Shown here: in pieces, positions 2,395 to 45,180 of the stretch
How positions within the stretch are numbered: position 1 is the first letter of the stretch
Layout of the letters: each line of letters starts with the position of its first letter
Virus record (IMG/VR): IMGVR_UViG_3300005836_000011
Coordinates: 1-64,000 of that record
Direction: 5' to 3' (one strand)
Length of the DNA: 64,000 nucleotides
From: a virus
Lineage: Duplodnaviria > Heunggongvirae > Uroviricota > Caudoviricetes
Notes under the pieces: model-generated
The model's database searches: none
What the model saw: only the letters and a program-made list of their open reading frames with translations
Told to the model about the DNA's origin: nothing
Translations under genes and position numbers: made by a program

Positions 2395-2967
2395 ATGAAG
2401 AGATTCGTTCTCTATCTCATTGCTGCATTTTTGCTTGTACCCGCCATTGCGCTCGCTGGCGGAAGCTCTGCAACTCAGAACGTCTGCTTCACAGATGTCA
2501 CAGGACCACCGATCGAAGGTAACGGAAGCGATAACAACAACGGCCACACTCACAACGTCACGCTCTGCGGAGACGTTCCCGTCGGTGAGCAAGGCCCTGC
2601 TGGTCCCCAGGGACCCGCTGGTCCTGCTGGTCCCGCCGGCCCTGCTGGTGCAGCTTCAACGGTTCCCGGACCCGCCGGTCCCGCAGGCCCTAAAGGCGAC
2701 ACCGGTCCCGCCGGTCCCGCTGGTAGTGGCGTAGCTGGTCCCGCAGGTCCCGCTGGACCACAGGGTATTCCTGGTCCCCAAGGCCCGCAGGGTCCCGCTG
2801 GACTAGCTGGTGTCTCGCGCACCATCACGAGAACGGTGAAGCTAAAGCCGACAATCATCATCAAGCGCTACACGAAGGTGATTGTGAAGAAGGTGTACAT
2901 CTATGGGTGCCCGAAGGGGTACACAACCGATCCGAGCGGTAAGTGTCAGCCGCAGGGAAGCGGCTAA
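2395..2967 (+). CDS. secreted collagen-like (Gly-X-Y) repeat protein
   Basis: N-terminal signal-peptide-like [23 protein letters not shown], about 80 residues of [13 protein letters not shown] repeats, and a Cys-containing C-terminus. Confidence 0.7.
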
Positions 2968-2981
2968 GCCGCGCTGGCCAG

Positions 2982-3209
2982 ATGAGAAAAAAGCCTAACC
3001 ATCGCCGCAGTCATTTCGTGGAAGCGGCGGTTGAGAAAACAACCTGGTTACGTCAACAGAAAGGAGTAGATCTGGATGTCGTAGAAACAGTGGAGTTACT
3101 CGCTGAAGCACTCGTTCGGCTAGATGCGCGAGTGCGAGTAAGTGAGAGTCATACCGACAGGAAGCTCGCAAAACTACGAAAGGAATACGATGACCACCAT
3201 GACCGATGA
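2982..3209 (+). CDS. hypothetical protein
   Basis: ORF track 2943-3209. The preferred start is ATG 2982, after the stop of the upstream gene. Confidence 0.35.
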   Translation: MRKKPNHRRSHFVEAAVEKTTWLRQQKGVDLDVVETVELLAEALVRLDARVRVSESHTDRKLAKLRKEYDDHHDR

Positions 3210-3597
3210 ACTGCGCGGCATTCAGACCGTGCGCGTAGAGAAGGAACCACTCCTCAAGCGCATCAGGGCCAACAAGGAGGACCATCGCAAGATCTATGAG
3301 GAAGCGATGGAGGGCTGGAAGCGTTCAGTGATTGAGGAGTTGGAAAAGGCATACAACGACGCACTCACAGGTAAGGACTTCCGAGTCGTCGTTCGTCTTG
3401 AGCGTCCCGAGGATCACACGAACGAGTACGACACCGTGATCGAGCTGCTCAAGATGTCCGTGGATGAGGAGTTCGAGTTGACCTACGTGGAGTTCTCGAA
3501 CTTCGTACTCGACAAGTGGGGATGGCAGGCAGGGTTCCTGCGCACCGCTTCGAGCTACGGCTCGACGCTCGCCATGTCCAAGGGCGACATCGTCTGA
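3193..3597 (+). CDS. hypothetical protein
   Basis: ORF track 3142-3597. Likely start ATG about 3193 (MTTMTDELRG) after 'aaaggaatacg'. Confidence 0.5.
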   Translation, partial: TTMTDELRGIQTVRVEKEPLLKRIRANKEDHRKIYEEAMEGWKRSVIEELEKAYNDALTGKDFRVVVRLERPEDHTNEYDTVIELLKMSVDEEFELTYVEFSNFVLDKWGWQAGFLRTASSYGSTLAMSKGDIV

Positions 3598-3767
3598 GTT
3601 GCATTAGAGACGTGAACGTACTAATGTCTCCCTTGCTCAGGGCAGCCTGAGTTTTCTCTCCCCCAGGGCCACATCGGACGGTTCATGGTCCCGCCCGGTG
3701 TGGCCCACCCCCACAACCAAAGGAGGTGACGCCATGCGAATAGCCACCGCATAGGAGGTGATTTCAC

Positions 3768-3941
3768 ATGGCTGCATCCGGAGGGAAGGGCAAGGCCCGC
3801 TCCGACAAGGACAAGGACCGCGCCGCCTACATGAGGCGCATGGGTATCGTGCGCACGACAGGTCGCTGCGCCGTCTGCTACAAGATCGTTACGATCGACA
3901 GCTGGAAGTCGCGCTACACGCACCGCTGCTGGACGCACTAA
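3768..3941 (+). CDS. small Cys-rich (Zn-binding?) protein, 57 aa
   Basis: ATG 3768 with a strong RBS AGGAGG at -9. MAASGGKGKARSDKDKDRAAYMRRMGIVRTTGRCAVCYKIVTIDSWKSRYTHRCWTH. Not in the ORF track (<60 aa). Confidence 0.45.
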   Translation: MAASGGKGKARSDKDKDRAAYMRRMGIVRTTGRCAVCYKIVTIDSWKSRYTHRCWTH

Positions 3942-3984
3942 TATTCGAGATACCGGGATCCAGTGAGACCCGGTGGACAAGACG

Positions 3985-4026
3985 CAAACGCCCCCGTCCT
4001 GCGCTGCGGGGGCGTTTGTGCTTTCT
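3985..4026 (+). terminator. rho-independent terminator-like hairpin
   Basis: caaacgcccccg / cgggggcgtttg stem with a 10-nt loop, followed by tgctttct. Confidence 0.5.
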
Positions 4027-4036
4027 AGGTTCCTAG
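4025..4036 (+). promoter_or_regulatory. CTAGGTTCCTAG 12-mer copy
   Basis: Exact copy between the terminator and the RBS of the 4055 gene. Confidence 0.5.
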
Positions 4037-4054
4037 AGGAAGGAGGTAACCGAA

Positions 4055-4354
4055 TTGGCCTACATGAGAGACGACTACTACATCTGGTCTGACGGGGTGA
4101 ACGTCCACATCCATGACCGATCTCGTGGAGATGACGCAAGCGTTAGTCATGTATCAGTTCCCGAGGATACTTTCGAAGAACTGGCAGCGATGGTCTTTTT
4201 GCGCTTGTCAGAACAGGAACGCGAGAAGGCGATCAAGCGTGCATACAGGAATCACGGTGGCAACTTCGGCTGCGAAGGTGTGGCCAAGTATCTTGGCAAG
4301 CCTTCGGGGTACGACATGGTCAGCAAGATGGTCGAAGGAAAGGAGTCGTCATAA
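4055..4354 (+). CDS. hypothetical protein
   Basis: ORF track; RBS ggaaggaggt upstream. Its stop lies immediately before the SLOG-domain ORF, which is in the -1 frame. Confidence 0.5.
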   Translation: MAYMRDDYYIWSDGVNVHIHDRSRGDDASVSHVSVPEDTFEELAAMVFLRLSEQEREKAIKRAYRNHGGNFGCEGVAKYLGKPSGYDMVSKMVEGKESS

Positions 4355-4689
4355 GAGTTCTCTTCTGTGGGTCACGCGACTGGACGGATGCCGGCAAGAT
4401 CGCGGCAGAGTTCGACGCCGTTCAGCCCACCGTTGTCATCGAAGGGGAAGCCAGGGGTGCAGACACCCTTGCGCGTCTCGAGGCTGAGCGTCGTGGTATC
4501 CGCGTACTCCCATTCGAGGCTGATTGGGATATCTACGGAAGGGCGGCCGGCCCCATTCGCAATAAGGAGATGCTTGAGCTGGGTAAGCCCGAACTCGTCA
4601 TTGCCTTCCAGCTAAACGACAGCAAGGGAACGAAAAACATGATCCAACAGGCAGAGAAGGCAGGAGTACCCGTAAAACTCATCACCTGA
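4354..4689 (+). CDS. SLOG/DUF2493-like Rossmann domain ORF (YspA/DprA-related) with no start codon
   Basis: Frame-1 translation RVLFCGSRDWTDAGKIAAEFDAVQPTVVIEGEARGADTLA...GIRVLPFEADWDIYGRAAGPIRNKEMLELGKPELVIAFQLNDSKGTKNMIQQAEKAGVPVKLIT has DUF2493-type motifs. No ATG/GTG/TTG is in frame between the upstream stop at 4144-4146 and nt 4590. Confidence 0.55.
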   Translation, partial: RVLFCGSRDWTDAGKIAAEFDAVQPTVVIEGEARGADTLARLEAERRGIRVLPFEADWDIYGRAAGPIRNKEMLELGKPELVIAFQLNDSKGTKNMIQQAEKAGVPVKLIT

Positions 4690-4700
4690 AAGGAGCAAGA

Positions 4701-5624
4701 GTGAGTTATCTCGTTCTTACATTCATTCTGTTCGTGATCTGCGCGATCACGTTCGGTATAGGGAGGTCGTTCGCGAGTACACCGGACGACGCGTATGAAG
4801 CAAAAAGCAAGCAGTCCATAGGAAAGATCACCGAGTGGTCGGCGATCATCATCTTCGTATTGCTTTTTGTCCTCTGGACAGGAGCCAAGACATTCCATGC
4901 CGTCCCTGCTGGCCACGTCGGCGTCGTCTATCAGTTCGGGAACATCGTCGGCCAAACTGACGCCGGCCTCGTCACCACGGCACCGTGGCAGGACTTGAAG
5001 CAGGCAAACGTGCAGGTGCAGCGTGAGTCATTCGATCAGCTCGACTCGTTCTCGAAGGAGACGCAGGACGTATTCATCAAGGCGACCATCAACTATGAAG
5101 TTAGCCCCAAGGACATCCAGACGCTCTACCGCACAGTCGGACCAAACTACTTCGACAAGCTGGTCCCCACACGCGTCAACCAGTTGTTCAAGGACGAGAC
5201 GGTGAAGTTTGCGGCCGTCAACATCGCACCTAACCGAGAGGTCATCCGCAAAGAAGTGCTGGCTCGGCTAAAGGCCGAACTTGCCAGGTATTCGATCCAG
5301 GTCGACGATCTCCTGATCGACAACATCAAGTTCTCCAAGGAGTTCACGAAGTCGATCGAGGATAAGCAGATCGCTACCCAGGAAGCCAAGGCTGCAGAGA
5401 ACCGCGTCAAGACCGCACAGGCCCAGGCACAGCAGGCAATCGCCGCGGCCAAGGGGCAGGCGAAGGCGCAGCAGCTGCAGCGCTCGACACTCACCCCGCT
5501 GCTTGTTCAGAAGTATGCGATCGACAAGCTCAACCCGAACGTGCAGGTTCTCGTGGTTCCCTCGAACGGAAGCATCCTGCTGCCATCGTCGCTACTGAAC
5601 AGCCTGCAGACAGGGAGGAAGTAA
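4701..5624 (+). CDS. SPFH/band-7 (stomatin/HflC-like) membrane protein
   Basis: N-terminal TM helix, an SPFH-like core (HAVPAGHVGVVYQFGNIVGQTDAGLVTTAPWQDLKQANVQVQRESF...) and a C-terminal Ala/Gln-rich coiled coil. Confidence 0.75.
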   Translation: MSYLVLTFILFVICAITFGIGRSFASTPDDAYEAKSKQSIGKITEWSAIIIFVLLFVLWTGAKTFHAVPAGHVGVVYQFGNIVGQTDAGLVTTAPWQDLKQANVQVQRESFDQLDSFSKETQDVFIKATINYEVSPKDIQTLYRTVGPNYFDKLVPTRVNQLFKDETVKFAAVNIAPNREVIRKEVLARLKAELARYSIQVDDLLIDNIKFSKEFTKSIEDKQIATQEAKAAENRVKTAQAQAQQAIAAAKGQAKAQQLQRSTLTPLLVQKYAIDKLNPNVQVLVVPSNGSILLPSSLLNSLQTGRK

Positions 5625-5737
5625 TGGGCAGGGCAATCGAGTTGTCACTTCTTGCCATCATCGTCATCGTCGTTGCCTTCTTCGTGATCCCGAAGGTGCT
5701 CATCGAGATTCAGAAGATGCGGAAGGAGGATCATTGA
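5624..5737 (+). CDS. small membrane protein (37 aa), translationally coupled to the SPFH gene
   Basis: ATG overlaps the TAA of the SPFH gene. MGRAIELSLLAIIVIVVAFFVIPKVLIEIQKMRKEDH. Confidence 0.4.
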   Translation: MGRAIELSLLAIIVIVVAFFVIPKVLIEIQKMRKEDH

Positions 5738-5913
5738 TCAGCCCTTATGACAGATCCCACATCGGAGAAATCCTGGCTGGCCAAGGAGATTGGTTCACGG
5801 CCAAGCTCCTGCGTCTGTGCATGAAGGCGGATTCCAGCAACCTCGAGCGGATTCGTCTTGGCTTCCCCGAGGTCGTCGAAGCCTTCGAAGAGTGGAGATG
5901 GAGGACAGAATGA
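5734..5913 (+). CDS. small hypothetical protein (TTG start)
   Basis: Frame-1 ORF LISPYDRSHIGEILAGQGDWFTAKLLRLCMKADSSNLERIRLGFPEVVEAFEEWRWRTE reads as a real protein. The listed 5790-6059 ORF has a junk-like Arg-rich N-terminus. Confidence 0.3.
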   Translation: MISPYDRSHIGEILAGQGDWFTAKLLRLCMKADSSNLERIRLGFPEVVEAFEEWRWRTE

Positions 5914-6059
5914 TTACCTACTGGCTCACGCTCGCGATCACCGCGGAGGATCTCGCCAAGGCCCTCAAATGCGAGGAGGATGAAATCGAGACGCAGGACT
6001 ACATCGGCGCGATCCGTGATTTTGGGGAGATCGTGAAACTGGAGGAGGTCGAAGAGTGA
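5910..6059 (+). CDS. small acidic hypothetical protein
   Basis: ATG 5910 overlaps the TGA of the previous ORF. MITYWLTLAITAEDLAKALKCEEDEIETQDYIGAIRDFGEIVKLEEVEE. Confidence 0.35.
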   Translation: MITYWLTLAITAEDLAKALKCEEDEIETQDYIGAIRDFGEIVKLEEVEE

Positions 6060-6277
6060 AGTGCAAGAATCCACAACAGCGTTTCCTGAACAAGATGCGG
6101 AGACGCAGATGTGCGTGCGGTTTTCCGTTAAGGGCGTGGGATATGTCTAGAGAAGAGGTAGAGAAGATTCATTTCGGTGGAACCACAGAGTACATCGGAG
6201 GATCGTGGCGTGTCACGTGTGAATGCATCAATGGCCACGTCTGGTCCGAATCATATCCCGAAGATGCCGCCGCCTAA
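6056..6277 (+). CDS. small Cys-rich (Zn-finger-like) protein
   Basis: ORF track; GTG start overlaps the previous stop. Has CACG...CECINGH. Confidence 0.4.
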   Translation: MKCKNPQQRFLNKMRRRRCACGFPLRAWDMSREEVEKIHFGGTTEYIGGSWRVTCECINGHVWSESYPEDAAA

Positions 6278-6404
6278 GATCTATCGCTGCGCTGCCTGCA
6301 ATCGACCGCTGAAGAAGGATCGCTGGGTATACAGTCCATCCACGCGTGCACACTACTGCTTCCCAGGAGATTGCAAACTCGACAGAAAGAAGAAGAAACA
6401 ATGA
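6264..6404 (+). CDS. small Zn-ribbon protein
   Basis: ATG 6264 (MPPPKIYRCAACNRPL...CFPGDC) follows the end of the previous ORF. The listed ORF 6177-6404 shares this frame; the first 29 codons upstream of the ATG are not counted. Confidence 0.3.
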   Translation: MPPPKIYRCAACNRPLKKDRWVYSPSTRAHYCFPGDCKLDRKKKKQ

Positions 6405-6688
6405 AGATCACGGTCGATGGATCTGTCGTCTATCTCGGAAAATGCGAGACAGGCGTCTACGTGTACGTGGGAGAGCAGTCGCAGGGAGATTCACCGATTC
6501 CCGTGGATGAGACAGAATCCATCCTCAACGGAGTATTGGTCGACTACGCGGAATCTGGCGAAGTCATCGGCGTCGAGATTCTCGTTCCCACCGGAGACTC
6601 ACGCGCTGAATACCCATGCGAATGCTTGGATGGAGGACACAAAACAAGAGATGGAACCTGCATGTGCGGTGGCTTCATCCGTAGGTAG
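6401..6688 (+). CDS. DUF2283-like small protein
   Basis: ATG 6401 after 'agaaagaagaagaaacaATG'. The VDYAESGEVIGVEIL motif is typical of DUF2283. Confidence 0.5.
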   Translation: MKITVDGSVVYLGKCETGVYVYVGEQSQGDSPIPVDETESILNGVLVDYAESGEVIGVEILVPTGDSRAEYPCECLDGGHKTRDGTCMCGGFIRR

Positions 6689-6697
6689 GCGGTAACA

Positions 6698-6735
6698 GAA
6701 GGGCGGCCATTTTGTTTGCGGCCGCCCTTTCTGAT
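6698..6735 (+). terminator. rho-independent terminator-like hairpin
   Basis: aagggcggcc, an 11-nt loop, ggccgccctt, then a weak T tail. Confidence 0.45.
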
Positions 6736-6816
6736 ACCGTTGTCATTCTGCGATGACGATCTCACCTTATCAAGTCTGACGGATGTTCCGCAATCGAACG
6801 TCCGCAGGGTAATGCT

Positions 6817-6832
6817 TGGCTCATATGAGCCA
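6817..6832. promoter_or_regulatory. 16-bp perfect palindrome TGGCTCATATGAGCCA (candidate operator)
   Basis: Perfect inverted repeat in the 250-bp non-coding gap after the terminator and before the 6988 operon. Confidence 0.4.
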
Positions 6833-6915
6833 GCGTTGCGTCGGCTCCACGCGGGGGCGCGGCGTGTCCTATGCAGCTATGCGACGACGGCAAATGGTCG
6901 GGGTGGGACCGGGTC

Positions 6916-6959
6916 TTCTCCGCCTACGCCTTGCGGCTACGGCGGCACTCCGCCTACGG
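6916..6959 (+). repeat. direct repeat of CTCCGCCTACG(S)C, two copies
   Basis: tctccgcctacgcc ... actccgcctacggc, 30 bp apart, just upstream of the 6988 gene. Confidence 0.35.
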
Positions 6960-6987
6960 CGTCGTGCACTACGAAAGGAAGTGCGCA

Positions 6988-7350
6988 ATGACGGATGACC
7001 TTGAGCTCTTCGACTACGGCATCGAGAGAAAGAGCGGTGACGTAACTCCAGCAAACGCTAGGGATGTCGTGGCTACCGTTGTTGAGATCTTCGCAGAGGA
7101 AGGTGTCCCGCTGGCGGGAAGATTCCGAGGCATGATCGGGAGGCATGCGAAGGATCTCCTGGACTCGGGCTTCGATTACTCCACTGTCGTCGTCGCTGCT
7201 GTTATGGCGTGCAAGCGGGGAGTCCCGCAGCACCTCACCTTCATCGCCCAAGATTTGGTGATGGCGCGCGCAGGTGTAAGAATGACTCGTCGAGAATATG
7301 AGCGAGCCATCCAGGATGAGATGGAGATACGGAGGCTAGAGGGTCGATGA
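6988..7350 (+). CDS. hypothetical protein
   Basis: ATG 6988 after 'gaaaggaagtgcgcaATG'. Listed as part of 6871-7350. Confidence 0.5.
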   Translation: MTDDLELFDYGIERKSGDVTPANARDVVATVVEIFAEEGVPLAGRFRGMIGRHAKDLLDSGFDYSTVVVAAVMACKRGVPQHLTFIAQDLVMARAGVRMTRREYERAIQDEMEIRRLEGR

Positions 7351-39953: not shown

Positions 39954-40385
39954 TCATCCCGTGAAACTCACCACATTGGAGTCGGGGCGCGTGTAGTCGC
40001 CCGCCCCGCTCGGCTGGTAGACCCATGCTGAGCAGGCGACCCCAGGTCGCGCGAGGGCGGTGAGGAACGTCGGCACCGTCTGCCCGAAGTAGGGTGAGAG
40101 TGGGTCGGTGACGATCAAGCTGGTGACCCAGCCCGTGTCGCCCACGGTGGAGAATCCCTCGCAGCGCACGACGACCTGCGCGAGCCACCAGATATTCTGA
40201 CGCCGGTTTGACCGCTGCACCTCGACGGTCACGGTGTCGTAGGGCGAATCCGTCGCCACGCTTGCCACACGAACGGTGAACCCGTTGTCGTTGCCCTTCG
40301 CGGTCGCGCCCGCACTCAGGACGAGCCCCGCTACGAGCACGGCGGCCAGCGACGCAATCCTGCTCATCACTGCCTCCTTAGACAT
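39954..40385 (-). CDS. secreted protein (signal peptide)
   Basis: [23 protein letters not shown] looks like a signal peptide. Confidence 0.45.
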
Positions 40386-43300
40386 TCTTCCTCGTATAGT
40401 TGATCATCACGCCAATCAGCATCGCATCTGCCGCAAGCGTGTCAGAGCCGTCGGCAGGTACGCGCTTCACACGAATGAACACCGTTTCGCTGGCTGCGGG
40501 AGTTCCGCCAACCGTGATCGCGGGAGTGGATGCGCTTTGGAACTGGAGCAACGTCGTACCCGCGGTCGGTGTATCCGCGATCTGCTGCGCTGTGCCATAG
40601 GCGGAGGCCGTATCTGTGCCATCGCCCAGAGCGACCGCCTCCAACGCCCAGACAACCCCGCTCGTACTCGTGCCCACGCGCGTCCAGTCAAACTGCGCGG
40701 TGATCGTTCCACCATCCCAGTCCGACGGCATCCGCAGAGTTGCACAAGCGAACTCCTGTGTCGTCTGGTCGAAGTCGAGCGTGTAGTAGTTGTGGCTGCT
40801 CGTTCCAGCGACATTCTTGTTCTGAGCAGCGCCGTTGGTCGTCGCTGGCACCATGCCCGAAGCGGTGAGATAGAGCTGCCCCGCAGGTGCCGGGCCACGC
40901 TGCCCATCAAGGCCGTGGATGCCCTCTGGCCCGGTCGCACCTGTCGCGCCGGCTCCTGTCGCTCCCGAGACTCCCGTTGCCCCGGTAGCACCCGAGATGC
41001 CGGTCGCGCCTGTTGCGCCAGAGATACCCGTCGGCCCGGTTGCTCCCCTGTCGCCAGACGGCCCCTCCAGACCATCGAGTCCCTGTGCTCCTGTTGCACC
41101 ACTGATTCCGGTTGCGCCAGTTGCGCCCGATATGCCGGTCGGCCCAGTTGCGCCCGAGACACCCGTGGCCCCCGTCGCCCCACTGACGCCGGTGGCGCCC
41201 GTTGCTCCTGAGACACCCCTATCTCCCGACGCACCCTCCAGGCCGTCGAGGCCCTGCGGCCCAGTGGCTCCGCTGATGCCAGTAGCTCCAGTTGCGCCAG
41301 ATACGCCGGTAGCCCCGGTAGCACCAGAAACGCCCGTGGCGCCAGTGGCCCCCGACACCCCGGTGGCGCCCGTGGCGCCAGAGATGCCGGTTGCACCTGT
41401 CGCTCCGCTGACGCCCGTTGCCCCAGTCGTTCCCCGATCTCCCGAGCGACCTTCGAGACCGTCGAGACCCTGTGGGCCGGTTGCTCCACTGATTCCCGTA
41501 GCGCCGGTAGCTCCGCTCACTCCGGTAGCGCCAGTAGCGCCTGAAACTCCGGTTGCCCCAGTAGCGCCCGAAACACCGGTTGCACCAGTGGCGCCCGAGA
41601 CTCCGGTGGCTCCAGTAGCCCCGGAGACACCAGTGGCGCCAGTGGCACCCGACACCCCAGTTGCTCCCGTCGCGCCAGACACACCGGTCGTACCAGGCGA
41701 TCCATCGAGTCCGTCAATCCCCTGCGGGCCCGTCGCTCCCGAGACGCCCGTGGCACCAGTCGCACCGGATACACCAGTTGCTCCCGTCGCGCCAGACACA
41801 CCTGTGGCTCCAGTCGCGCCAGAGACCCCGGTCGCGCCCGTTGCGCCAGAAACGCCTGTCGCTCCAGTCGCGCCAGAAACGCCCGTCGCCCCCGTCACAC
41901 CCTTGTCGCCGGAAGCTCCCTCGAGACCATCGAGACCCTGGGGACCCGTCGCACCGGATACGCCTGTCGCGCCAGTAGCGCCGGAGACCCCAGTAGCGCC
42001 GGTTGCTCCACTGACTCCGGTAGCACCAGTGGCACCGGATATGCCTGTTGCACCCGTTGCTCCAGAGACGCCCGTCGCTCCAGTAGCACCGGATACACCA
42101 GTGGCCCCCGTAGCGCCCGAGATGCCTGTGGCACCTGTGACTCCCCTATCTCCTGATGCTCCCTCCAGTCCATCCAGCCCCTGCGATCCAGTAGCACCAC
42201 TTATTCCTGTGGCACCAGTTGCCCCGGATATTCCGGTTGCGCCAGTGGCTCCGCTGATGCCTGTTGCGCCTGTCGCGCCAGAGATACCCGTTGCTCCGGT
42301 GGCTCCTGAAATACCTGTGGCACCCGTAGCTCCACTAACTCCTGTGGCACCCGTTGCTCCTGAAACACCCGTAGCTCCCGTAGCCCCTGTGACGCCCTTG
42401 TCTCCCGATGGCCCCTCCAGCCCATCGAGGCCCTGCGCGCCGGTTGCGCCGGATATGCCAGTCGCGCCCGTTGCTCCTGATATTCCCGTGGCACCAGTTG
42501 CACCAGATACCCCGGTTGCCCCCGTAGCTCCGGAGACACCCGTGGCACCAGTAGCACCGGAAACACCGGTTGCCCCAGTGGCACCACTGATTCCTGTGGC
42601 ACCAGTGGCCCCTGAAACTCCAGTCGCTCCTGTGACTCCCTTGTCTCCAGAGGCCCCTTCTAGGCCATCGAGACCCTGTGGGCCGGTAGCGCCCGACACA
42701 CCAGTTGCACCCGTAGCCCCACTGATTCCCGTGGCTCCTGTCGCCCCGGAAACTCCGGTAGCGCCTGTGGCTCCCGAAACCCCGGTTGCGCCAGTTGCTC
42801 CGGATACCCCCGTAGCACCAGTTGCGCCCGATACTCCGGTCGGGCCTGCCGCTCCGGATATCCCAGCACTTCCATCAAGCCCATCCAACCCTTGCGGCCC
42901 AGTAGCCCCCGACACTCCAGTAGATCCGGTCGCTCCCGAAACCCCGGTTGCGCCTGTTGCCCCAGAAACTCCGGTTGCTCCGGTAGCGCCGGATACTCCA
43001 GTCGCACCCGTTGCTCCTGAAACTCCCGTAGCGCCTGTTGCACCCGATACGCCAGTTGCTCCAGTTGCTCCGCTGACTCCTGTAGCCCCCGTTGCTCCGC
43101 TGGCACCAGTTTGGCCCTGAGAACCATCAAGCCCAGGGATGGCCTCTGGACCAGTCGCACCAGAAATCCCTGTTGCTCCGGTAGCTCCAGAGATACCTGT
43201 TGCGCCGGTAGCACCGCTAACTCCGGTTGCTCCAGTTGCACCCGAAACTCCGGTTGCTCCAGTGGCGCCGCTTATACCTGTCGCTCCGGTAGCCCCACTT

Positions 43301-45180
43301 ACTCCGGTTGCCCCCGTGACCCCCTTATCACCCGAAGCGCCTTCCAGGCCATCGAGTCCTTGCGGGCCGGTTGCTCCACTAATCCCAGTCGCTCCAGTCG
43401 CACCTGATACACCCGTAGCTCCCGTAGCGCCCGAAACACCAGTAGCTCCAGTTGCACCGGATACGCCAGTCGCGCCAGTAGCGCCGCTGACACCTGTTGC
43501 TCCTGTAGCGCCGGAGACCCCGGTAGCGCCCGTGGCTCCTGAAATGCCTGTCGCGCCAGTAGCGCCTGAGATACCTGTCGGCCCCTGCCCTCCATCAATG
43601 CCATCGAGGCCAGCCGGCCCAGTTGCCCCACTGATTCCGGTTGCTCCGGTGTTTCCTCCCCCAGGACCAGTCTGGCCCGTGGGACCCGTGGCACCCGTGG
43701 CGCCTGACCCGGTGGCACCGATGCCTCCGTCAACGCCATCCAGTCCGGCGGGGCCAGTCGCTCCACTAACGCCCGTGGAGCCTGTCGCTCCCGAAACCCC
43801 CGTCGCCCCGGTGGCTCCGGAAATCCCAGTAGCTCCAGTTACACCCTTGTCGCCCGAAGGTCCATCGAGGCCATCGAGTCCTTGAGGACCAGTGGCTCCC
43901 GAAACCCCGGTAGACCCGGTAGCCCCAGAAATCCCTGTGGCTCCAGTGGCTCCGGAAATGCCCGTGGCGCCTGTCGCGCCCGACACTCCGGTCGCACCTG
44001 TTGCACCCGAGACACCTGTGGCACCTGTAGCTCCGGAGACTCCTGATCCGGTCGCGCCCGTCCCTCCAACAGCGCCATCAATTCCGTCAGTCCCCTGTGG
44101 GCCGGTCGCACCGCTTGATCCTGTGGCGCCAGATACACCAGTCGCTCCTGTTGCTCCGGAAACTCCCGTAGCGCCCGTCGCTCCGCTGACACCAGTTGCC
44201 CCAGCACCCGTAGCGCCAGTCGCTCCCGAGCTCCCGGTAGCACCCGAGACACCTGTCGCGCCTGTCGCGCCCGTGACGCCAGCGCCTGTCGGCCCAGTCG
44301 GGCCGTCTGCGCCAGATGCGCCATCGGATCCTGTGGCACCCGTATTGCCCTGCGCTCCCGCCGAGATCGGCGTCAGCACCGACGACGTGTTCACCGAACC
44401 CATGTAGTACGTCGTGAGGTCGGTAGAGCCGCCGCCCGAGTCCTTGACCGCGTAGAGCTTGACTACAAGCAGGTCGTCTACGAGAAGCGCTATTGGAGCC
44501 GCTTGCGAGTACGTCCAGATTGCAGACTGAACCAGCGTGTTATCGATCTCTCCCGAGTCCGACGTAAAGAGCAGCGTCTCGCCACCGCCAGCCGCGCGCT
44601 TGTAGACCTCGGCGCGCAGGTAGACAACGCCGATTGCGCTGTCCACGTCGGCGCTAATCGAGAAGCGCCAGAGGCCGACGGGAATCTCCTCGATGGCCGG
44701 TACGCCAACGATGGTCGAGAACTCCTCGATGAGAACCGGGCTCGTTCCGGTCGTGACGCCGGCGATGATCGTGTCCTCGGCATCTGCCGATGGAAACTTC
44801 CGCGCCTGTCCATACCCGCCTATCGTCGGGTGAGCCGTCGTCCATAGCCAGAATCTCGCCCCAGCCTCACCTGCTGGCCCAGTCGGACCGGTTGCGCCCG
44901 TCGCGCCAGTGACTCCGTCCGTTCCGATCGTGCCGGAAGGGCCAGTAGCGCCAGTCGCACCCGAAGGGCCACCAGCAGGGCCCGTGGCGCCCGTTGCTCC
45001 AGTCTGTCCTGCGCCCGATCCTCCGGCAGGAGGATCAACGTACTCGTGAATCCAGCCACCAGGGAAGCCAGGCTCGCCCAGTACCGCCGGGCGGGTCTGG
45101 AGCATCTTCTGGTCGCCGATGGCCGAGTCATCGACGTCAAGAAGCCTGCGAAGGAAACGTATTACGCGAACAGCGGCCAT
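40378..45180 (-). CDS. giant collagen-like triple-helix repeat protein (1600 aa), putative virion fibre
   Basis: About 1150 residues of uninterrupted Gly-X-Y ([13 protein letters not shown]..., punctuated by [19 protein letters not shown]). N-terminal 250-aa and C-terminal 230-aa non-collagen domains. Confidence 0.85.
40880..44350. repeat. nested tandem repeats (9/27-nt and about 300-nt units) encoding the Gly-X-Y region
   Basis: Repeats are visible at both nucleotide and protein level. The antisense strand carries spurious Pro/Ala/Val ORFs. Confidence 0.8.

Follow-up and report, generated by a model that had tools for sequence, protein, structure and literature searches.

The window, that is, the whole 64,000-nucleotide stretch of DNA analysed in this study, carries on its + strand a SLOG/YAcAr (DUF2493, PF10686) gene at 4351-4689, which consists of 112 codons and a TGA and is supported by Pfam, PHROG, conserved residues and a structural model. 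The upstream gene, encoding a 99-aa protein, occupies 4055-4354 of the same strand, with a TTG start and a TAA at 4352-4354. Its Shine-Dalgarno (SD) sequence, AAGGAGGT, was located in a survey of AAGGAG motifs at 4040-4047 (+ strand), 7 nt before TTG 4055. The SD of the SLOG gene itself, AAGGAG at 4340-4345 (+ strand), is part of the 3' end of the upstream gene (codons K-E), with a 5-nt spacer before the putative near-cognate start ATA at 4351-4353 (+ strand), which overlaps the upstream TAA and aligns with the Met1/ATG of the homologues. The next gene in the same operon encodes an SPFH/Band 7 protein (GTG 4701 to 5624, + strand) and is preceded by the SD AAGGAG at 4690-4695. Upstream of the 99-aa gene, a terminator-like GC-rich hairpin followed by a U-rich stretch (3983-4020, + strand) ends the preceding transcription unit; the fold of 3975-4060 reached -38.7 kcal/mol with z = -2.96, and the terminator scan gave a match at 3995-4014. 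That unit contains the Cys-rich ORF at 3768-3941, which encodes a basic protein of 57 aa with the Cys/His pattern C-x2-C ... H-x-C; it matched no family, is followed by the strong terminator and probably represents a zinc-ribbon protein of small size.

Just upstream of the SD of the gene at 4055, we found a palindromic repeat, TCTAGGTTCCTAGA, at 4024-4037. It was observed that the repeat had 18 strand-matches at approximately 12 places in the window, against 0.23 expected, with 14-bp sites at 490, 2358, 4024, 9055, 15712, 16823, 29416, 48742, 58094 and 63333. It was also present in related metagenomic contigs, including L006 (at 1310), L009 (four sites) and L012 (at 529). The repeat precedes the 99-aa gene in the window and its homologue in L006-L008, directly precedes the SLOG gene in L012/L013, and is placed between a terminator-like hairpin and an SD at several sites. 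We regard it as a probable operator or promoter-associated element in this group of phages.

The window represents an uncultivated tailed-phage genome with genes for a terminase, a portal, a major head protein, a 1,563-aa tape measure and a collagen-like fibre, and its GC content is approximately 56%. No tRNA genes were found in the window, no near-identical DNA was found among cultured phages, and the TerL of the window shared at most 35% identity with that of any cultured phage. The collagen-like repeat tail-fibre gene (1,599 aa) is located at 40378-45180 on the - strand and has a local GC content of 63%, compared with approximately 55%. About 20 gene starts in the window were preceded by AAGGAG, including approximately 7 ATG, approximately 10 GTG and 3 TTG; TTG at 4055, GTG at 4701 and TTG at 5734 are examples of the non-ATG starts anchored in this way. 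This unusually heavy use of non-ATG starts suggests that the host or the phage is tolerant of weak initiators.

The SLOG frame (pos%3==1) was open from 4147, after a TAG at 4144, to the TGA at 4687-4689, and its first ATG, GTG or TTG was the ATG at 4570, which left a gap of 141 codons. The initial annotation had placed this frame at -1 relative to the upstream gene running from TTG 4055 to TAA 4354, which we confirmed, and had reported no canonical start for about 130 codons, an absence that was reproduced with the length corrected to 141 codons. The Pfam search returned PF10686 (YAcAr, 'YspA, cpYpsA-related SLOG family', formerly DUF2493) with E = 8.2e-14 and 51.6 bits, the gathering cut-off being 28.2 bits, and the match spanned profile positions 2-64 of 66. 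PHROG 289 was matched with E = 1.1e-29. Because of these two matches, the SLOG ORF is no chance ORF, and the genuine, well-conserved SLOG/DUF2493 domain described earlier was upheld. The peptide quoted at that time was found in the translation of the SLOG frame, which from 4351 encodes IRVLFCGSRDWTD...GADTLA...AGPIRNKEM.... Automatic gene calling reports merely a 39-aa remnant of the gene (4570-4689, + strand), which begins at the first canonical ATG in the frame and covers the C-terminal third of the domain.

Homologues of the SLOG protein were found in 1,404 phage records, and a collection of 5.8 billion proteins contained 1,428 of them. These homologues are stand-alone single-domain proteins of approximately 113 aa (112-126 aa for the annotated ones) with the N-terminus M-R-V-L-x-C-G. 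The alignment covered at least 80% of the query and began at query residue 1-2 in 1,352 of the 1,404 phage records; for example, Klebsiella phage KP1-1 gp38, Mycobacterium phage Mundrea gp59 and Acinetobacter phage Silvergun CDS_0019 start with M-R-V-L and align from query residue 1-2. Among the best 120 database homologues, 95 showed M-[RK]-[VIL]-L, the Met falling precisely on the ATA. The closest homologue, P0001 (contigs L012/L013), shared 78% identity, and its start region reads 'gggagggtca ATG AGA GTT TTG TTC TGT', compared with 'aaggagtcgtc ATA AGA GTT CTC TTC TGT' in the window. Other homologues begin with GTG AGA ATC CTC (L014) or ATG AGA ATC CTC (L016), and L016, with its ATG start, was the one locus yielded by the single metagenome scan. 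No close relatives of the SLOG protein or of the 99-aa protein were found in IMG/VR. We also observed that the Pseudobacteroides cellulosolvens ATCC 35603 chromosome (NZ_LGTC01000001.1) carries at least eight separate SLOG/YAcAr gene copies (L112, L113, L115, L128, L130, L135, L138 and L139), several of which are clustered at approximately 6.75-6.81 Mb.

The start codons were surveyed in 80 viral loci and 80 genome loci homologous to SLOG (160 in total), and the patterns used for the genome scan excluded the start. The codon aligned with the ATA was ATG, GTG or TTG in 120 loci, and a canonical start was located at most 10 codons away in 35 more. In 4 of the 160 loci, a canonical start occurred only further upstream, and a single locus had none. 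In this locus (L058, 589-930 of IMGVR_UViG_3300013121_000026, a 160.8-kb viral contig), the conserved Met1 codon reads ATT and is preceded by TAGGAGA-N5; the gene lies in a stop-filled intergenic setting downstream of a 159-aa gene, and the next ATG is 24 codons in. It is a second family member lacking a canonical start and supports tolerance of weak starts; a frequency of 1 in 160 does not exceed the background at which rare starts generally occur.

We then read the junction codon by codon: it is GGA AAG GAG TCG TCA TAA in the upstream frame and AAGGAG tcgtc ATA AGA GTT CTC TTC TGT in the SLOG frame. ATA is an allowed rare initiator in genetic code table 11, and near the N-terminus of the SLOG domain ATA 4351 is the sole table-11 start. 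The statement in the initial annotation that the ORF has no start codon was accordingly right for the three canonical starts and wrong as regards ATA 4351-4353, a permitted rare initiator. The ATAA at 4351-4354 forms a same-strand 4-nt stop/start overlap with the SD within the upstream gene, and the restart codon of this overlap is ATA, not a canonical ATG, GTG or TTG. Overlaps of 4 nt of the ATGA/GTGA type are the commonest same-strand junction in the window, with at least 12 cases. The SLOG gene is in the -1 frame because a 4-nt stop/start overlap imposes that frame; the shift is geometric and is therefore no evidence of recoding. The SLOG gene shares its AAGGAG-N5-start geometry with the gene after it (AAGGAG 4690, GTG 4701), and several further genes of the window have it too. 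Other in-frame near-cognate codons further upstream, namely ATA 4243, CTG 4270 and ATC 4153, were rejected, as they had no SD or homology support.

To assess the integrity of the SLOG gene, we compared its conserved residues with those of 120 homologues. It was observed that 36 of the 37 columns with at least 90% conservation were kept, the mean deviation of the homologues being 0.8 positions, and the family motifs CG.R after strand 1, EGEA.GAD, AGP.RN and S.GT were present. No stops or frameshifts were found within the 112 SLOG codons. The dN/dS against the closest relative, L012, was 0.09 with a dS of 1.56, a ratio that does not separate a gene functional with ATA from a very recently inactivated one. 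The AF2 model, built from 66 sequences, had a mean pLDDT of 96.8 and showed a complete five-unit beta/alpha Rossmannoid domain, in which beta-strand 1 comprises residues 2-7, directly after the ATA codon. Since beta-strand 1 starts at residue 2, an N-terminal extension is unneeded. A Foldseek search of the PDB with this model returned DprA (3uqz, TMq 0.82), the ligand-sensor domain of Cam1 and ShosA, and a PDB sequence search with the SLOG protein returned nothing significant. The structural matches fit SLOG membership, with a predicted Rossmannoid three-layer fold related to DprA/LOG.

The 99-aa protein was characterized in the same way. It had 13 homologues among the 5.8 billion proteins, all of them stand-alone proteins of 86-111 aa and none with PF10686. 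The family shares an invariant NHGGNFG.EGVAK.LG motif, and its conserved core, ...NHGGNFGCEGVAKYLGKPSGYDM, ends in ...GYDMV followed by short variable tails. No match was found in Pfam, PHROG, NCBIfam or PADLOC, and neither the search of cultured phages nor the genome scan with the 99-aa family returned anything. The AF2 model, of moderate confidence (pLDDT 79.6), showed a beta-meander and four helices, and no PDB fold match was found for it. In related contigs (L179 90-467; L009 54-1022 and 2146-2520; L178 1137-1601), the 99-aa gene is located among small accessory genes, and its neighbours there include genes for a cREC_REC domain protein (PF20274), a DUF6915 protein and an SPFH/Band 7 protein. 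This gene content points to an early region of mosaic make-up that includes genes related to nucleotides or ADPr.

Taken as a whole, the SLOG ORF is a separate cistron with ATA at the homologous Met1 codon, and we consider it fairly probable that it is translated from this near-cognate ATA, probably at a reduced level and helped by translational coupling. What sets the window gene apart from the relatives at its start is one substitution in the last base of the initiation codon, ATG in them and ATA here, with no indel. With fMet-tRNA at the ATA, ribosomes would be recruited de novo by the SD, would reinitiate after the overlapping TAA, or would use both routes; the SLOG protein so made would have its normal 112 aa and be far less abundant than from an ATG. 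Provided that the junction was ATGA in the ancestor, a single G-to-A transition would have changed ATG to ATA and TGA to TAA together and would thus have been silent for the upstream gene. Previous studies have reported that AUA initiation in E. coli in vivo reaches 1-2% (range 0.02-3%) of AUG (Hecht et al., 10.1101/063800), and that in vitro an AUA mRNA with an optimised initiation region was translated about as well as the AUG mRNA at 20-40 °C (PMC5499595). The AUG-to-AUA mutant of T4 rIIB kept approximately 15% of its translation, and the phage HB-3 hydrolase was produced from AUA at 7.5% of the AUG level (PMC5499595). Experiments in bacteria and archaea have established termination-reinitiation at overlapping stop and start codons, where the dependence on the SD varied (Huber et al. 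2019, PMC6728339). For the phage studied here, we infer translation from the ATA from sequence, and we assume that reinitiation may relax the choice of start codon in its host. The initial annotation was therefore borne out in its genuine SLOG domain lacking ATG, GTG and TTG, and none of its three frame-changing mechanisms was needed. Essentially, what we found is the outcome that it had itself named as contrary to its proposals, a separate gene with a non-canonical start: the homologues are separate genes, and the start here is non-canonical.

The alternative that survives best is that a recent G-to-A transition destroyed the ATG, leaving the SLOG gene effectively silent and heading for decay, so that the intact ORF and the SD merely reflect how recent the mutation is. 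This explanation agrees with the canonical start at or near the aligned codon in the closest homologue and in 155 of the 160 surveyed loci, with the AUA level of only about 1-2% in E. coli in vivo, and with the mere 39-aa remnant recovered by gene callers. Furthermore, the SLOG gene is accessory: it was missing beside the upstream gene in six of the six related contigs examined and is thus dispensable in the phage group. However, no second lesion has appeared, since neither a stop nor a frameshift interrupts the 112 codons, and the conserved residues are kept no worse than in bona fide homologues. The low dN/dS over a dS of 1.56 leaves neutral evolution possible for only a small fraction of the lineage. 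The strong SD, the ideal spacing and the stop overlap make some expression from AUA likely, and L058, whose corresponding codon is ATT, likewise has a perfect SD. We therefore regard a silent start-loss pseudogene as possible, and as the less likely of the two readings. A pseudogene created by a frameshift mutation, as proposed earlier, is not supported, as the first codon of the homologues maps to ATA 4351 and no frame change is needed; of the mechanisms first suggested, only a crippled gene would survive, through loss of the start codon and not through a frameshift.

A further proposal, that the ATA start has been selected as a device for low SLOG expression strictly coupled to the upstream gene, appears doubtful, yet more likely than the frameshift fusion considered below. 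The ATA start is not conserved: it is confined to two near-identical contigs, and the closest relative and nearly all family members have ATG. Because the ATA occurs in two almost identical contigs only, selection for it cannot be shown.

A sequencing or assembly error, in which position 4353 would in truth be G, giving an ordinary gene with an ATG start and an ATGA overlap, was considered highly unlikely. Only one base separates the observed from the canonical state, and the data are metagenome assemblies. Against an error, the identical base was found in two distinct JGI contigs, the 83.5-kb source contig and the 4.2-kb L004, which are distinguished by one base elsewhere. L004 (JGI sample 3300001372, 4,225 bp) corresponds to window 2885-7109, the one mismatch (2898) being close to the contig's end, and its ATA junction is identical; the gene caller likewise reported only the 39-aa remnant 4570-4689 on it, and both contigs have entries for the 99-aa product and for the remnant. 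Moreover, substitution errors are rare in consensus assemblies, and no ATG version of the SLOG protein was found among approximately 15 billion proteins, in which the best match was 78% identical. The two assemblies may not be fully independent, so a small probability of error remains. The sequencing indel suggested by the initial annotation did not hold, because the difference from the relatives is a single-base substitution, to which a homopolymer error is inapplicable.

The weakest explanation is a programmed -1 ribosomal frameshift near the end of the 99-aa gene, for instance at A_AAG 4339-4342, which would yield a fusion of approximately 210 aa. According to this explanation, the 99-aa domain and the SLOG sensor domain would form a new two-domain phage protein made by recoding alone. 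The -1 frame is open over 4147-4354, so a shift anywhere in it would read into SLOG; the A_AAG tetramer lies inside the SD-like GAAGGAAAGGAG, where single-tRNA(Lys) slippage is conceivable; and SLOG domains are fused to other domains in some phages. However, no X XXY YYZ heptamer was found in the overlap 4147-4354, which contains only the isolated tetramers T_TTC, T_TTG, G_GGG and A_AAG, and the downstream folding of 75 and 125 nt (z = +1.18 and 0.01) was no better than that of shuffled sequences. No Rfam element was found at the junction, and the SD-like run directly adjoins the A_AAG tetramer, whereas at dnaX it lies 10-14 nt upstream. Each of the 13 proteins homologous to the upstream product ends shortly past the conserved core without a SLOG domain, and no fused version was found in the comparison with homologous phage genes, all of which are stand-alone. 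The retrieved flanks of the upstream-protein homologues contained no SLOG gene, and none of 165 SLOG loci had a 99-aa gene nearby. Small genes of unrelated type come after the 99-aa gene in six related contigs, where tblastn for SLOG was negative. The SLOG fold is complete from residue 2, and the 4-nt overlap accounts for the -1 relation. Among the relatives examined, the adjacency of the 99-aa and SLOG genes appears only in this phage, which leaves a conserved programmed fusion unsupported. With no heptamer, stimulator or fused homologue, the programmed frameshift put forward in the initial annotation is extremely improbable.

We further compared the preferred explanation, a separate cistron starting at ATA, with known systems. 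The SLOG gene product resembles the stand-alone phage DUF2493/YAcAr proteins (KP1-1 gp38, XPO96967.1; Mundrea gp59; PHROG 289, 'GTP-binding domain') in being a single domain of approximately 112 aa with the N-terminus x-R-V-L-x-C-G-S-R, the conserved motifs and 43-50% identity. The genes of those proteins start with ATG (or GTG/TTG), whereas the window gene has an ATA overlapping the preceding stop. Termination-reinitiation pairs of the ATGA type (PMC6728339) are alike in the 4-nt overlap, the internal SD and the -1 frame of the downstream gene, and differ in that the tetranucleotide of the window gene is ATAA, with a near-cognate restart codon. T4 rIIB with the AUG-to-AUA change and the HB-3 murein hydrolase are also phage genes with an AUA initiator produced by a G-to-A transition; they are, however, laboratory mutants or constructs in E. 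coli, whereas the window gene belongs to a natural metagenomic phage. Another near-cognate AUH initiator found in nature and preceded by a functional SD is the AUU of infC (IF3). That codon is autoregulatory and conserved across the phylogeny, whereas the window ATA is not conserved in the relatives, so that no regulatory role can be claimed for it. The dnaX gene and the phage tail chaperones G/GT likewise consist of overlapping ORFs, the second of which is in the -1 frame without a canonical start. In contrast to these, the SLOG junction has no slippery heptamer, stimulator or conserved fusion architecture. The gene is thus of known kinds already, as a phage DUF2493 gene and as a near-cognate start or a start-codon mutant.

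As for function, previous studies have placed most viral SLOG domains in a YpsA-like clade, predicted to sense or degrade cADPR-type immune signals and uncharacterised (PMC9503650). In ICP1, DUF2493 forms the C-terminus of the accessory helicase HelB (10.1101/671271). By analogy, the SLOG protein of the window is predicted to bind or cleave ADP-ribose-derived or other nucleotide signals of host defence.

The value of the present case lies mainly in annotation. Gene callers limited to ATG, GTG and TTG turn a complete SLOG gene into a 39-aa fragment; such calls invite false verdicts of a frameshift or a pseudogene, and aligning the N-termini of the homologues resolves them. The current understanding of translation and of SLOG biology is unchanged by this result. 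If the ATA start is functional, it would add one more natural near-cognate initiation with a stop/start overlap (ATAA) in a phage, and it would imply that the predicted counter-defence SLOG protein is needed at a low dosage.
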